Virus record (IMG/VR): IMGVR_UViG_2571042056_000001
Coordinates: 1-5,506 of that record
Length of the DNA stretch: 5,506 bases
From: a virus
Taxonomy: Monodnaviria > Loebvirae > Hofneiviricota > Faserviricetes > Tubulavirales > Inoviridae
Reading direction: 5' to 3' (one strand)
In this document: positions 2,082-5,432 of the stretch, in pieces
Position numbering within the stretch: position 1 is the first letter of the stretch
Layout: each line of letters starts with the position of its first letter
Translations under genes and position numbers: made by a program
Notes under the pieces: model-generated
Told to the model about the DNA's origin: nothing
The model's input: only the letters and a program-made list of their open reading frames with translations
The model's database searches: none

Positions 2082-3107
2082 ATGGCTGTATCATTGTATA
2101 TGGGTGTGATGGGGAGCGGTAAAACATACGAGGTTGTTTACAGTGTTATTATCCCTGCGGTTTCAGCAGGCCGCCGTGTAATCACCAATATCAAAGGGAT
2201 AAATGAAGAGAAAATACATGAGTATTGTCGTTCTAAATTCAAGACTAAGCAGCCTGGTCGTGTTGTTTTCGCATCGACGGATGAAATATTAAAGGATGAT
2301 TTCTTCCCTTTTTACTCTGATGATGAATCTTCAGAACAAAAAGCAGCATTTTGTGAATATGGTGATCTGATTTGTCTTGATGAATTATGGTCAATATGGC
2401 CATCGGACTCAAAACTATCTGAGGCACATAAAAGATTTATTTCAATGCACCGTCATATGACACATGCTGTTAGTGGGGTATCATGTGATTTGGTCATCAT
2501 CAATCAGGGTGTAGATGGTGTACCCCGGTATCTTAAAGAGCGTATTGAATCGACATACCGGATGACCAAGCTAAAATCTCTGGGGCTATCAAAGTCATAT
2601 CGTGTCGATGTTTTTTCTGGTGCCAAGGTATTCAAAAATAATAAAGTCAGTACTCGTAACTATCAGTACAAAAAAGCCGTTTTTGAATTATACAAATCTT
2701 ATGAAACCACTAACGGAATGGAAGCGACAACAGACTCTAGACAAAACGTTTTTTCATCCGCCTTTCTTTGGGTAAAAATTGCATTTTTATTATTTATTGT
2801 ACTGGCTTCTATATATTCAATAAGAACGGTCTGGGTGGATATTAGAGGTGAGTCAGTACCAGAGCCGAAACATACCGAACCGGAAGTTGTACTGCCTTCA
2901 TCAGCAAAGATTGCGAAACCTGATGCCCCGTACTCAAAGCGCTGGCGTATTGCCGGGGAGTTAAAATCAGATTATGTCAGCAAGGTTGTTCTTACAGACA
3001 GCAATGGTCGGTTTAGAACGCTACCGGCAAATCAGTTCGACGGAGAAGGTTTTACTTTAAGTGGAATCATTGATGGTGAAATTGTCACCTATTTTACTGG
3101 GGGTTAA
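2082..3107 (+). CDS. zot: Zot-family (zonula occludens toxin-like) assembly NTPase, inovirus pI homolog (341 aa)
   Basis: N-terminal Walker A P-loop MGVMGSGKTYEV. GRRVITNIKGIN and ISMHRH closely resemble the GRHIITNVRGLN and FDMHRH segments of CTXphi Zot as I recall them. A Walker B-like hydrophobic-Asp-Glu run (LICLDELW), a single TM segment after the NTPase domain (FLWVKIAFLLFIVLASIYSI) and a C-terminal periplasmic-type tail complete the pI/Zot architecture. RBS AGGA 7 nt before the ATG. Confidence 0.9.
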   Translation: MAVSLYMGVMGSGKTYEVVYSVIIPAVSAGRRVITNIKGINEEKIHEYCRSKFKTKQPGRVVFASTDEILKDDFFPFYSDDESSEQKAAFCEYGDLICLDELWSIWPSDSKLSEAHKRFISMHRHMTHAVSGVSCDLVIINQGVDGVPRYLKERIESTYRMTKLKSLGLSKSYRVDVFSGAKVFKNNKVSTRNYQYKKAVFELYKSYETTNGMEATTDSRQNVFSSAFLWVKIAFLLFIVLASIYSIRTVWVDIRGESVPEPKHTEPEVVLPSSAKIAKPDAPYSKRWRIAGELKSDYVSKVVLTDSNGRFRTLPANQFDGEGFTLSGIIDGEIVTYFTGG

Positions 3108-3108
3108 T

Positions 3109-4320
3109 ATGAAATTATTTTATATCATAATAGTGGTATTTATGATTCCACCTGCATTATCAAAAGGCGTTATACTGAATCTCTCAGGATTAACGCTTAA
3201 TGATGCCATTACTTTGTTTTATACTGAAGTTATGAGAAAACCGTTCATGGTTTCTCCTGAACTTATCACGGACAAACGACAAGTTAATTTCAATATTACG
3301 CCAGATATGGATGAGTATACGTTTATTATGCGTTATCTCCAGAATGCCGGAGTCTCTGTAGCCAGAAAAAATGGTGTGGATTACTTTTATCTCCAGGAGA
3401 AAAAAGTATACGAAGCCCCGAAATATTCTTTTGTTTACACACCACAGTACCGTTCTGTTGCTTATCTGGCTGATATTCTTCAGTCACAAGTGAGCGGGTC
3501 ATTTTCAAATGGTGGGCAAATAGGGAATGGCGATGTTTCTCCTGCGATGATTAAAGACAATACCGCATCCGATTTTTTGAGCAGAAATGGGGATGTACTT
3601 GTTTTTTACGGTACGAAAAAAGACATTCAGCGGGTCGAAGATTTGCTTCCTCTTATCGACCGGGCCGCCGAAGAAGTTATTGTCGCCGGGTACGTGTTTG
3701 AGGTTCAGACGTCTGAGCGAAATGGTTCTGGCCTGGCACTGGCTGCCAAACTTATGTCGGGAAAATTCACAATAGAAACGGGTACTGCACAAGGACTCAG
3801 CAACTTTGTCCGTTTCAGTTCTGGATCGCTCGATGCACTTTATGAGTTGTTCAGAACAGACAGCCGTTTTCACGTCGTCAGTTCGCCACAATTGCGGGTC
3901 AGAAATGGCTCTAAAGCATCATTTTCTGTGGGATCTGACGTGCCGGTACTCGGTCAGGTCAGCTATGTTGATGGTCGTCCGGTTCAGTCCATTGATTATC
4001 GTTCAAGTGGCGTAATTTTTAACGTTCAGCCGCAAATCCGGGCTGCTACGATTGACCTTAATATTCATCAGCAACTGTCTAATTTTGCAAAAACAGAGAC
4101 TGGGGTGAATAACAGCCCGACGCTCATTAAACGGGAGGTGAACACCGATGTTTCGCTCAAGGATGGCGACATAATTTTACTTGGTGGTCTGGCTGAGAAT
4201 AAAGACAGTAATGCAGATACGGGCCTGTCATTTTTGCCGTCATGGTTCGGAACAACGGCAACTGAAAAAGCAAAAACAGACATCATTATTGTACTTCAGG
4301 CCAGAAAAATCAGGCGGTGA
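3109..4320 (+). CDS. Secretin, inovirus pIV-like outer-membrane export channel (403 aa)
   Basis: Start chosen at ATG 3109 (GGGGG RBS at 3099-3103, 1 nt after the pI stop) rather than track start 3061. Signal peptide MKLFYIIIVVFMIPPALS. C-terminal secretin-type region with the conserved-looking DGDIILLGGLAENKDSNADTGLSFLP segment followed by a short basic tail. Confidence 0.8.
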   Translation: MKLFYIIIVVFMIPPALSKGVILNLSGLTLNDAITLFYTEVMRKPFMVSPELITDKRQVNFNITPDMDEYTFIMRYLQNAGVSVARKNGVDYFYLQEKKVYEAPKYSFVYTPQYRSVAYLADILQSQVSGSFSNGGQIGNGDVSPAMIKDNTASDFLSRNGDVLVFYGTKKDIQRVEDLLPLIDRAAEEVIVAGYVFEVQTSERNGSGLALAAKLMSGKFTIETGTAQGLSNFVRFSSGSLDALYELFRTDSRFHVVSSPQLRVRNGSKASFSVGSDVPVLGQVSYVDGRPVQSIDYRSSGVIFNVQPQIRAATIDLNIHQQLSNFAKTETGVNNSPTLIKREVNTDVSLKDGDIILLGGLAENKDSNADTGLSFLPSWFGTTATEKAKTDIIIVLQARKIRR

Positions 4321-4329
4321 GAGCAGGGC

Positions 4330-4361
4330 GGCCAGCCCCGCAGCTCCGTGAGGAGCTGGCC
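4330..4361 (+). promoter_or_regulatory. GC-rich stem-loop just after the secretin gene (terminator, packaging-signal or origin-hairpin candidate)
   Basis: GGCCAGC (4330-4336) is complementary to GCTGGCC (4355-4361), and CAGCTCC (4341-4347) to GGAGCTG (4352-4358) with a GTGA loop; the arms overlap, so alternative foldings exist. Local GC richness contrasts with the AT-rich surroundings. No following T-tract, so not a classic intrinsic terminator. Confidence 0.3.
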
Positions 4362-4410
4362 GTACTGAGACACCGACTGTTGATTGATTGTGTAAATCAT
4401 GAACGGCGTG

Positions 4411-4428
4411 ATTTGCGCATGCGCAAAT
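4411..4428. promoter_or_regulatory. Palindromic operator-like repeat, copy 1 (ATTTGCGCATGCGCAAAT, perfect 18-bp palindrome)
   Basis: Perfect inverted repeat read directly from the sequence, preceded by GTGAT. Ends 27 nt upstream of ATG 4455. Confidence 0.6.
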
Positions 4429-4454
4429 TTCTCGTCAATTCTTATGGGGAATCT

Positions 4455-4769
4455 ATGGCTACAAAGTTGAAGTTTATCCGACTGAAAATTGAAGATGAGT
4501 TAATCCAGCCGGTTAATAATCTGGCAGGCATTCGCGATGAGTTAAAGGCCGACATAGCCAGTGAAATCGTTGAGTGGTATCTGAACCAACGAAAAGCAGG
4601 GCATGTACACATACGGTACTTCTCCAGTCCGAAAGGCTCAGATTATCAGGGGATCTGGTTCCATCCGGATACGATCAAACGAGCGAAACAGCAGGCCGAA
4701 GACGATCAACAACCGTTAAACCGACTGATTTATACGGCTCTGGCCCGTTACTTTGAACAATCGATCTAA
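4455..4769 (+). CDS. Hypothetical protein (104 aa); possible regulatory or partner protein of the downstream HTH gene
   Basis: In-frame ATG at 4455 with GGGGA 4 nt upstream. The longer track ORF (GTG at 4317) would run through the GC hairpin and palindrome copy 1, so the shorter start is preferred; ATG 4419 inside the palindrome is another alternative. Mixed charged, non-hydrophobic product (MATKLKFIRLKIEDEL...RLIYTALARYFEQSI) with no motif I can assign. Confidence 0.5.
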   Translation: MATKLKFIRLKIEDELIQPVNNLAGIRDELKADIASEIVEWYLNQRKAGHVHIRYFSSPKGSDYQGIWFHPDTIKRAKQQAEDDQQPLNRLIYTALARYFEQSI

Positions 4770-4785
4770 CATGCTCAAAGTGATA

Positions 4786-4803
4786 ATTTGTGCATGCGCA
4801 AAT
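4786..4803. promoter_or_regulatory. Palindromic operator-like repeat, copy 2 (ATTTGTGCATGCGCAAAT, one mismatch), abutting a -10-like TGATAAT
   Basis: Same motif as copy 1 with C to T at 4791. Preceded by AAGTGATA, giving a -10-like TGATAAT (4781-4787). Ends 24 nt upstream of ATG 4828. Confidence 0.6.
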
Positions 4804-4827: not shown

Positions 4828-5094
4828 ATGCAGCAATTTGATGTGTCTCATCCGGGCGAAATTATTGCCAGAGAGTTGGCTGAGATGGGCATTAGTGTTA
4901 ACCGATTTATCGAAGAAACTGGCATCCAGCCAGCTTTTTTAGAAGGGAAAATGGCGTTAACCGCTGAGCAGGCCGTTCCGATCGTAGCAATAATGGGAAG
5001 CACTCCTGATTTTTGGTTACGTCTTCAGTATGCATATGATCTGCGACAGCAGAAAAATAAAGCAGAAGCAGGCAAATATGACGATCACAGCTGA
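4828..5094 (+). CDS. higA: HigA/XRE-family helix-turn-helix DNA-binding protein (88 aa); antitoxin-like or phage repressor-like
   Basis: Product MQQFDVSHPGEIIARELAEMGISVNRFIEETGIQPAFLEGKMALTAEQAVPIVAIMGSTPDFWLRLQYAYDLRQ... carries the N-terminal HPGE motif, an HTH core and the GSTPxFWLxLQxxYDL signature typical of HigA/VapI-type proteins. RBS AGGA 9 nt upstream. The symbol is a family-level assignment, not proof of antitoxin function. Confidence 0.8.
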   Translation: MQQFDVSHPGEIIARELAEMGISVNRFIEETGIQPAFLEGKMALTAEQAVPIVAIMGSTPDFWLRLQYAYDLRQQKNKAEAGKYDDHS

Positions 5095-5260: not shown

Positions 5261-5276
5261 TTTGCGCATGCGCAAA
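5261..5276. promoter_or_regulatory. Palindromic operator-like repeat, copy 3 (TTTGCGCATGCGCAAA, perfect 16-bp core)
   Basis: Perfect 16-bp palindrome immediately after the 59-aa ORF stop. Ends 23 nt upstream of a GTG (5300) that follows a consensus AGGAGG (5289-5294). Confidence 0.6.
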
Positions 5277-5358: not shown

Positions 5359-5374
5359 TTTGCGCATGCGCAAA
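5359..5374. promoter_or_regulatory. Palindromic operator-like repeat, copy 4 (TTTGCGCATGCGCAAA, perfect 16-bp core)
   Basis: Perfect 16-bp palindrome preceded by AAGTGAT, the same upstream flank as copy 2. Ends 32 nt upstream of ATG 5407, which opens a frame running to the window end. Confidence 0.6.
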
Positions 5375-5409
5375 TGTAGTGATAGATCATTTAAGAACGC
5401 GACGAAATG

Positions 5410-5432
5410 CCGGAAATTCTTTCCGGTGTTTT
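5410..5432 (+). terminator. Hairpin followed by a T-run (terminator-like, or a 5' regulatory structure)
   Basis: CCGGAAA (5410-5416) pairs with TTTCCGG (5420-5426) around a TTC loop, then TGTTTT (5427-5432). It overlaps the first codons of the open frame starting at 5407, so its role is ambiguous. Confidence 0.3.

Follow-up and report, generated by a model that had tools for sequence, protein, structure and literature searches.

What lies between the secretin gene of a filamentous prophage and orf104, the small accessory gene behind it: the N-terminal extension of a longer protein, or a structured, untranslated element, and if the latter, of what kind? The window analysed here is a stretch of 5,506 nucleotides, 5.5 kb of the 9,204-bp unit of a filamentous (Inovirus) Escherichia coli prophage. 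In this window, an open reading frame (ORF) at 4317-4769, whose translation begins MRAGRPAPQLREELAVLRHRLL..., opens with a GTG (4317-4319) that overlaps the stop codon (TGA, 4318-4320) of the gene IV-type secretin gene. The original prediction had noted this overlap, together with a GC-rich stem-loop at 4330-4361 and a palindrome copy within the first 46 codons, and had argued for a non-coding control region in which the stem-loop might be a terminator, a packaging or origin hairpin, or an RNA processing site. All of these sequence features are present as described. Our comparisons indicate that bases 4317-4454 are an intergenic, non-coding spacer and that the stem-loop belongs to a longer, strand-biased hairpin under selection, which may be the equivalent of the packaging signal of the Ff and IKe phages.

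The open frame in front of orf104

ATG 4455 is codon 47 of the ORF at 4317-4769, and the 46 codons before it (4317-4454, + strand) span the hairpin and palindrome copy 1. We examined this GTG-initiated extension across the protein family, which was sampled as the window type, the P0002 type (91-95% identical; contigs L007-L012), the Salmonella/Kluyvera type (~63%; L003-L006) and the metagenomic contig L021. The frame of the extension is disrupted by indels in three of the four related lineages (Salmonella, Kluyvera and L021). A 1-nt deletion just 3' of the secretin stop shifts it in the Salmonella/Kluyvera type, where it closes after 20 codons, and in L021 it terminates before the ATG, with which it is out of frame. 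L007 is the only other lineage in which the extension remains open. The window differs from L007 by 14 substitutions in 4317-4454, distributed 6/5/3 over the codon positions, while those in orf104 and in the secretin gene are distributed 2/2/11 and 15/3/52, respectively (Fisher test, p = 0.009 for the extension against orf104 and p = 0.0003 against the secretin gene). The original prediction had allowed that synonymous-substitution patterns might reveal the region to be coding; with 3 synonymous and 11 non-synonymous changes, they do not.

The homologues point to the same start. All of them begin at the position of ATG 4455, with M(A/T)(T/S)(K/N)(L/F)KFIRL, behind a GGAA/GGGGA Shine-Dalgarno-like element; in the window, the element is GGGGA at 4446-4450 and the start codon is 4455-4457 (4446-4457 in all, + strand), both of which are conserved. 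The distant homologues measure only 99-104 amino acids, and the RefSeq annotation by PGAP also places the gene start at ATG 4455. Because the frame is broken in relatives, shows no third-position bias and is contradicted by the starts of the homologues and of RefSeq, we consider the extension to be non-coding and open by chance in the window lineage.

A real ORF of 4317-4769, with GTG 4317 coupled to the secretin stop and a 150-amino-acid product bearing an Arg/Ala/Pro-rich N-terminus, would account for the open frame in the window and L007, and for the GTGA start/stop overlap, a classic coupling arrangement. Gene callers also return 150-amino-acid models (P0001 and P0002). However, this proposal is effectively refuted by the broken frames in Salmonella, Kluyvera and L021, and the substitution pattern, the lengths of the distant homologues and the PGAP start also speak against it, so that we find it barely credible. 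Several automatic gene models, P0001 and P0002 among them, join the structured, non-coding spacer onto orf104, whose true product is 104 amino acids long. A conserved leader peptide starting from a GTG or ATG at the secretin stop was ruled out as well, as the Salmonella lineage reads another frame there.

A conserved hairpin across the secretin stop

The stem-loop of the original prediction is real, and it is the core of an imperfect hairpin of 69 nt (4311-4379, + strand). This hairpin is composed of an outer stem (4311-4319 with 4371-4379), a middle stem (4324-4326 with 4365-4367) and an inner stem, in which 4328-4341 pairs with 4348-4363; the inner stem forms the GC-rich core stem-loop (4328-4363, + strand) that contains 4330-4361. 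The hairpin straddles the secretin stop. The last 10 nt of the secretin gene (4311-4320) provide its 5' base, so that the hairpin begins within the last three gene IV codons; the outer stem draws on the last secretin codons and the stop. The GC content of 4324-4367 is 75%, compared with 42% for the window. Folding of 4320-4370, which had been suggested together with the original prediction, gave -29.1 kcal/mol for RNA (z -3.48; one of 200 shuffles equally good) and -14.7 kcal/mol for DNA (z -2.62). A 91-nt DNA fold over the hairpin reached -22.6 kcal/mol (z -4.03; none of 200 shuffles equally good), and the DNA folds of the hairpin range from -20.4 to -22.6 kcal/mol, with z from -4 to -5. In a 70-nt sliding fold along the 9,204-bp phage unit, the RNA hairpin reaches -37.7 kcal/mol, and with a z of -5.1 it is the second most stable hairpin of the phage.

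Some other identities were set aside. An alternative fold with a GNRA cap (CAGCTCC-GTGA-GGAGCTG) is broken by a T-to-C change at 4345 in L021, which leaves the minimum-free-energy model unaffected. The hairpin region has no match in Rfam at E values up to 1 and contains no tRNA or tmRNA. A REP-like dispersed repeat was rejected, given that, among 5,426 E. coli genomes, the segment turned up only within this prophage, in 8 of them; it is also absent from the plasmids searched.

Base pairing was assessed in an alignment of seven distinct close sequences representing three clearly distinct lineages; a covariance-model alignment (A8) was excluded from the pair counts, since its strands were mixed and it contained spurious matches. 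Standard pairs occupy 90% of the pair cells, a share that drops to 23-45% once the 3' partners are displaced by 1-3 columns. Compensatory changes are found at 4317/4373 (G-C to A-T), 4331/4360 (G-C to C-G) and 4332/4359 (C-G to T-A), and the 4314/4376 mismatch is an A-T pair in the Salmonella type. Two of the changes in the 5' arm are synonymous in the last Arg codons of the secretin gene and are matched in the non-coding 3' arm. RNAalifold independently predicts the inner and outer stems. The hairpin core is identical to that of L007 at 40 of 40 positions (genome baseline ~93%) and to that of the Salmonella phage at 35 of 40 (baseline ~72%), a conservation that exceeds that of the adjacent coding DNA, and the least conserved stretch is formed by the 30 nt separating the hairpin from palindrome copy 1. 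The comparison of the spacer among related phages, also proposed beforehand, thus yielded conserved structure and no conserved codons, and it indicates that the hairpin structure is under selection. A single departure was noted in L025, from a human gut metagenome, in which an uncompensated G-to-A change at the equivalent of 4359 leaves a C.A mismatch in the pair 4332/4359.

The two strands do not fold equally well. The + strand, which is both the coding and the packaged strand, forms more pairs than the - strand in each of the seven sequences (for example, 25 versus 23 and 21 versus 18, of 26), owing to the G.T wobbles that make up 1-4 of the pairs in each sequence. The covariance model favours the gene-sense strand in every lineage (101.9 versus 28.1, 38.5 versus 17.4 and 33.8 versus 18.3 bits).

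Packaging signal, RNA element or origin

A hairpin that caps gene IV in a filamentous phage is an element of a known kind. The secretin gene (3109-4320, + strand) matches Pfam Secretin (E 7e-25) and PHROG 1012, 'assembly (protein IV of M13)' (E 1e-123) and is labelled GspD by PGAP, and it stands at the end of an Ff-like gene order, gVIII-gIII-gVI-gI-gIV, that the window phage shares with the Ff phages. The analogy drawn in the original prediction to the position of the Ff packaging signal was borne out, as the hairpins of M13 and IKe likewise start no more than ~10 nt before gene IV ends. The IKe morphogenetic signal (NC_002014 6141-6196; gene IV end at 6151) is, like the window element, an imperfect + strand hairpin that begins ~10 nt ahead of the gene IV end and takes in the stop codon, and the two fold alike (-21.7 kcal/mol for IKe and -22.6 kcal/mol for the window, both with z -4.03). 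They differ in that the IKe signal lacks the conserved tip described below and is directly followed by the origins, whereas ~1 kb of accessory genes and palindromes follows in the window; IKe is also episomal, while the window phage is integrated at dif. Hairpin [A] of the Ff phages (M13, f1 and fd) likewise starts at the gene IV stop and is the most stable single-stranded DNA hairpin of its region, on the packaged strand, but its stem is longer, near-perfect and of other sequence. The Ff packaging signal is orientation-dependent and is recognised by pVII, pIX and pI. In the 70-nt stability scan, the known packaging signal is the top match in M13 and in IKe, and the post-secretin hairpin ranks among the top two in three related phages (window, Salmonella and P0002 types), in which the other top matches are a folded attP or a double hairpin.

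The most distinctive part of the element is its tip (4337-4354, + strand; CC-CGC-AGCTCC-GTG-A-GG-A), in which two C-G pairs are flanked by bulged A's on the 3' side (4351 and 4354) and the 3' arm displays a Shine-Dalgarno-like GAGGAG. This tip, 5'-CC-[3 bp]-loop-[3 bp]-A-GG-A-3', is also carried by sequence-unrelated stems, some of them AT-rich, in contigs L017, L113, L095, L019 and L020, and in a variant form in L034. A covariance model trained on the seven close sequences found its distant matches exclusively on the gene-sense strand. They belong to inoviruses with secretins 48-56% identical to that of the window: L113 (secretin 48% identical; 41.2 bits, E 1e-9), directly 3' of the gene IV stop; L095 (56%; 33.8 bits, E 2e-7), spanning this stop; L017 (Dulem virus 52; 38.5 bits, E 8e-9), 3' of the accessory gene following gene IV; L019 (19.4 bits, E 0.005), 3' of the major coat gene; and L034 (13.9 bits, E 0.26, the best match in that contig), again across the stop of gene IV. 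In L020, a similar hairpin 3' of the major coat gene was seen by folding and by the pattern search and is not a covariance-model match. Over 115 kb of phage DNA, a structural pattern search recovered six tips, all of them in the top hairpin of their genome, compared with 1.3 in shuffles, and a scan of viral contigs for the tip pattern returned mostly chance matches, with hairpin context in 2 of 120. The hairpin of L034, a relative of the window phage, is directly followed by sequences collinear with the annotated minus-strand and viral-strand origins of IKe, and it therefore occupies the slot of the IKe morphogenetic signal. The idea that inoviruses generally place their strongest hairpin behind the secretin gene was discarded, as it fails across the phages at 49% identity: only L018 fits, and the strongest hairpins of the others are located elsewhere.

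While the non-coding status, the structure and its conservation, the strand bias, the position and the shared tip are shown by the sequence comparisons, the packaging function, like a role as an RNA barrier, is something we infer. We put the chance at about even that the hairpin at 4311-4379 is the equivalent of the Ff/IKe hairpin [A], that is, a + strand packaging signal that may also serve as a transcript barrier. According to this model, the hairpin would stay double-stranded within the single-stranded genome coated by gene V protein, and its recognition by the assembly machinery would start extrusion, with the asymmetric tip, the CC/GG pairs flanked by two bulged A's, as the likely recognition feature. 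As RNA (~-38 kcal/mol), the same hairpin would probably also act as a barrier or 3'-end stabiliser that ends the assembly operon. Behind it, the invariant 16-bp palindrome and the Shine-Dalgarno element stand ahead of the real orf104 start, ATG 4455.

Several observations weigh against this assignment. A packaging function is not something that can be read from sequence, and alignment of the window hairpin to the f1 and IKe signals gave no meaningful similarity; nor does the covariance model match the intergenic regions of M13 and IKe. The covariation reflects few independent events in a small family. The copies of L019 and L020, which lie 3' of the major coat gene and carry a U-tract, and that of L017, which lies 3' of an accessory gene with A- and T-tracts, are terminator-like, so that the family as a whole could act at the RNA level. 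In the 1.35-kb contig L021, the hairpin occurs with the palindrome and orf104 and without a secretin gene upstream, and its DNA fold is weak (z 0.1). Furthermore, the position of packaging signals is not universal, given that the experimentally mapped signals of integrative Xanthomonas inoviruses (phiLf-UK and others) are hairpins of 20-26 nt in or near gene II (bioRxiv 10.1101/2023.12.30.573655). These signals resemble the window element as GC-rich DNA hairpins with conserved stem and loop nucleotides in integrative filamentous phages, but they are situated beside the origin or within gene II, function in both orientations and belong to phages without gene IV (bioRxiv 10.1101/2023.12.30.573655), whereas the window element is 69 nt long, strand-biased and directly adjacent to gene IV. 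For integrative filamentous phages, this 2023 preprint describes the packaging signals as largely unknown (bioRxiv 10.1101/2023.12.30.573655). The hairpin in question is a concrete, covariation-supported candidate with a mutable conserved tip, in a prophage of clinical E. coli; it would allow direct tests of how such phages select DNA, and it could serve in phagemid or transducing-particle tools for this phage group.

The main alternative is a purely RNA-level element, such as a factor-dependent or weak terminator, an attenuator or a 3'-end stabiliser, that would close the assembly operon after gene IV and insulate orf104 and the HigA-like gene behind it, with no part in packaging; we regard it as rather unlikely. 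The great stability of the RNA hairpin and its place at the end of the last morphogenesis gene would suit such an element, as would the copies of L017, L019 and L020, which stand at operon ends (after gene VIII or an accessory gene) with flanking A- or U-tracts. The IKe record itself labels 6141-6196 as 'stem loop structure pot. transcription termination, morphogenetic signal', and Ff phages end their gene IV transcripts in the intergenic region. Intrinsic terminators, such as that after gene VIII of the Ff phages, are likewise GC-rich stem-loops that end a transcription unit. In the window, however, no U-tract follows the inner or the outer stem on the + strand, a terminator scan made no call, and relatives do not conserve the 3' flanks (ACUGAGAC behind the inner stem, UUGAUUGAUU behind the outer one). 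Because it has no U-tract, the hairpin is not a canonical intrinsic terminator, and the functions listed in the original prediction, although an appropriate set, are narrowed to this extent. The Salmonella, L034 and L021 copies also lack the U-tract, and a terminator would not explain an asymmetric tip that is conserved on unrelated stems, beyond what termination needs. Moreover, orf104 has no recognisable promoter of its own, and its expression may thus need read-through. As both would act on the + strand, the packaging and RNA-level readings are inseparable by sequence alone.

Two further proposals are less compatible with the distribution of the hairpin. In one, hairpin, palindrome and orf104 would form a single mobile unit, with the hairpin as a 5'-terminal mRNA stabiliser or a cassette boundary. 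The three are adjacent in five of five close lineages, and the homology of L021 to the window begins at ~4307, at the hairpin base, and runs through the palindrome and orf104 with no upstream secretin gene. L113, L095, L034 and L017, however, have the hairpin and no orf104 homologue (tblastn and BLASTP negative), no promoter is predicted inside gene IV upstream of the hairpin, and L021 retains the last four secretin codons and hence looks like a deletion remnant, which makes the proposal improbable. The orf104 homologue of L021 (1-1351) has a DUF7661 gene behind it, elsewhere a gene of enterobacterial plasmids; the contig could represent what is left of a prophage, or it could point to movement of the cassette. 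In the other proposal, the folded + strand would serve as a minus-strand origin, a signal for single-strand initiation recognised by RNA polymerase or primase, which would prime complementary-strand synthesis after infection. A strong, conserved, + strand-biased hairpin in single-stranded DNA is what such a signal would look like, and the phage has no recognisable Ff-type minus-origin sequence, so that another hairpin must serve. The L034 hairpin, however, has a complete IKe-like minus origin closely downstream of it and is not needed as an origin there, and a better candidate lies at 5392-5461, a conserved double hairpin that resembles hairpins B and C of the Ff phages; we therefore consider this role quite improbable. 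No Ff-type origin motif was found in the window, where accessory genes follow the hairpin.

Palindrome, orf104 and other elements of the phage

The palindrome that the original prediction placed within the control region is a perfect 16-mer, TTTGCGCATGCGCAAA, at 4412-4427 (copy 1, + strand; 18-mer ATTTGCGCATGCGCAAAT at 4411-4428), which ends 27 nt 5' of the orf104 ATG (4428 to 4455). Copy 2, TTTGTGCATGCGCAAA, lies at 4787-4802 (+ strand) and ends 25 nt upstream of the HigA-like gene, and copies 3 and 4 lie at 5261-5276 and 5359-5374, both on the + strand. These four copies (up to 2 mismatches), for which 0.01 would be expected by chance, bracket the accessory-gene block of the window phage. 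The 16-mer of copy 1 is invariant in five of five close lineages, in which its flanks diverge. The control-region reading is thus borne out only in part, as the palindrome is clearly constrained but neither a scan nor inspection by hand found a sigma-70-like site in 4300-4460; a -10-like hexamer (GATAAT, by direct reading) stands just upstream of copy 2 only. The segment TGTGTAAATCATG (4389-4401) resembles the right half-site of the palindrome and pairs with its left half in the RNA fold, and a partly conserved block, ATG.AAA.C.CA..AAC, is found there in all lineages; the block 4391-4404 is conserved.

In the five close lineages, orf104 encodes the only protein that always adjoins the palindrome; the Salmonella type lacks the HigA-like gene. 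The identical 16-mer also occurs at gene junctions of unrelated inoviruses without an orf104 homologue. It lies between gII and gV in L034 (281-296) and over the gIII start codon in L036, L038 and L045; the positions in these three are L038 3891, 6886 and 6921, L045 5579 and L036 7759. Two of the L038 copies stand behind a post-gI hairpin and are absent there in the sister phage L045. The viral collection holds 20 exact matches, six of them in inoviruses, of which four are independent of this phage, while about a dozen exact matches would be expected by chance, a rough estimate that assumes a collection of ~50 Gb. From these counts, the palindrome looks enriched in inoviruses. Its central ATG was rejected as a start codon, since the window copies have no Shine-Dalgarno element; it is a plausible start only in L036, L038 and L045, with a GGGAG Shine-Dalgarno element upstream and a signal peptide downstream.

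Taken further, the hairpin and the palindrome would extend beyond this phage. We advance only tentatively, as a possibility that may well fail, that the hairpin founds a new packaging-signal family across a clade of secretin-encoding inoviruses, recognised by its asymmetric tip and able to relocate among gene IV stops, gene VIII terminators and the ends of accessory genes, and that several unrelated lineages of inoviruses share the palindrome as a cis element, which would work through a host factor or as an RNA or DNA hairpin, and not as the site of a phage-specific repressor. Sources of the related sequences are Salmonella, Kluyvera, metagenomes, and saliva viromes of humans and lemurs, and several inoviruses of this clade carry dif-like Xer attachment sites.

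The product of orf104 (4455-4769, + strand; 104 amino acids; PGAP coding sequence at L001 12456-12770, where the L001 position equals the window position + 8001) is predicted to fold as beta-alpha-alpha twice (AlphaFold secondary structure, at low confidence, pLDDT 57). It is possibly a tandem, single-chain ribbon-helix-helix protein, and it has weak matches to Arc-like PHROG families (E 0.002 and 0.011) and to a CopG entry of the PDB (E 0.22). A structure search with the orf104 model gave no significant match, the best being single-chain Arc and F-relaxosome chains (E 0.4-0.6). Very few homologues were found among 5.8 billion proteins, and profile and metagenome searches revealed no more distant relatives.

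The genes upstream of the secretin gene are a major coat-like gene (171-392), a gIII-like gene (515-1780), gVI (DUF2523; 1790-2077) and gI/Zot (2082-3107). The accessory block 3' of the secretin gene contains orf104, the HigA-like helix-turn-helix (HTH) gene (4828-5094), which lies 3' of orf104, and a 59-codon ORF. The prophage was found in 8 of 5,426 complete E. coli genomes, clinical isolates among them, in every case on the chromosome, integrated at dif as 1-4 tandem copies adjoining hipBA. A megablast search against deposited phage genomes returned no near match to this phage, and the closest secretins among deposited phages are ~49% identical. In strain EC4 (NZ_CP060974), the right-hand prophage copy is cut off 288 nt into the secretin gene and continues into a frameshifted HTH pseudogene (L001 20314-21440), and in the left-most copy a different leftward gene (L001 4660-5736) replaces the DUF2971/MltR pair.

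The most stable hairpin of the phage is located ~80 nt beyond the window end (L001 13587-13646; phage unit 5586-5645). It is forked, with two dif-like arms in inverted orientation, TTATGTTGAAA ... TTTAGCATAACGTCATTGTGCGCAT, that flank a stem of GGCCGCTGCG/CGCAGCGGCC, and it looks like a folded single-strand attP of the CTX type. A dif-like hybrid site is present at the left junction of the prophage (attL, L001 4568-4601), and a relative carries the same attP-type, dif-armed hairpin (L004 3316-3385). The third most stable structure is the compound double hairpin at 5392-5461, which includes CCGGAAA..TTTCCGG followed by TGTTTT and is also conserved in the P0002-type and Salmonella relatives. It contains a terminator-like hairpin with a T-run (5411-5435), ~1 kb 3' of the secretin hairpin, and it is a candidate for a real operon terminator, a minus-strand origin, or both. 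Outside the window, a motif GTTCGGGG(G)TTCTGT(G/T)ACACCCGAAC, followed by a second GC hairpin, adjoins the repressor and replication genes (L001 15019-15088; phage unit 7018-7087). The GTTCGGGG/ACACCCGAAC motif is common to the window phage and the oral inoviruses at 49% identity (L019 4714-4783 and L020 3460-3529), and it is a candidate origin or terminator element.

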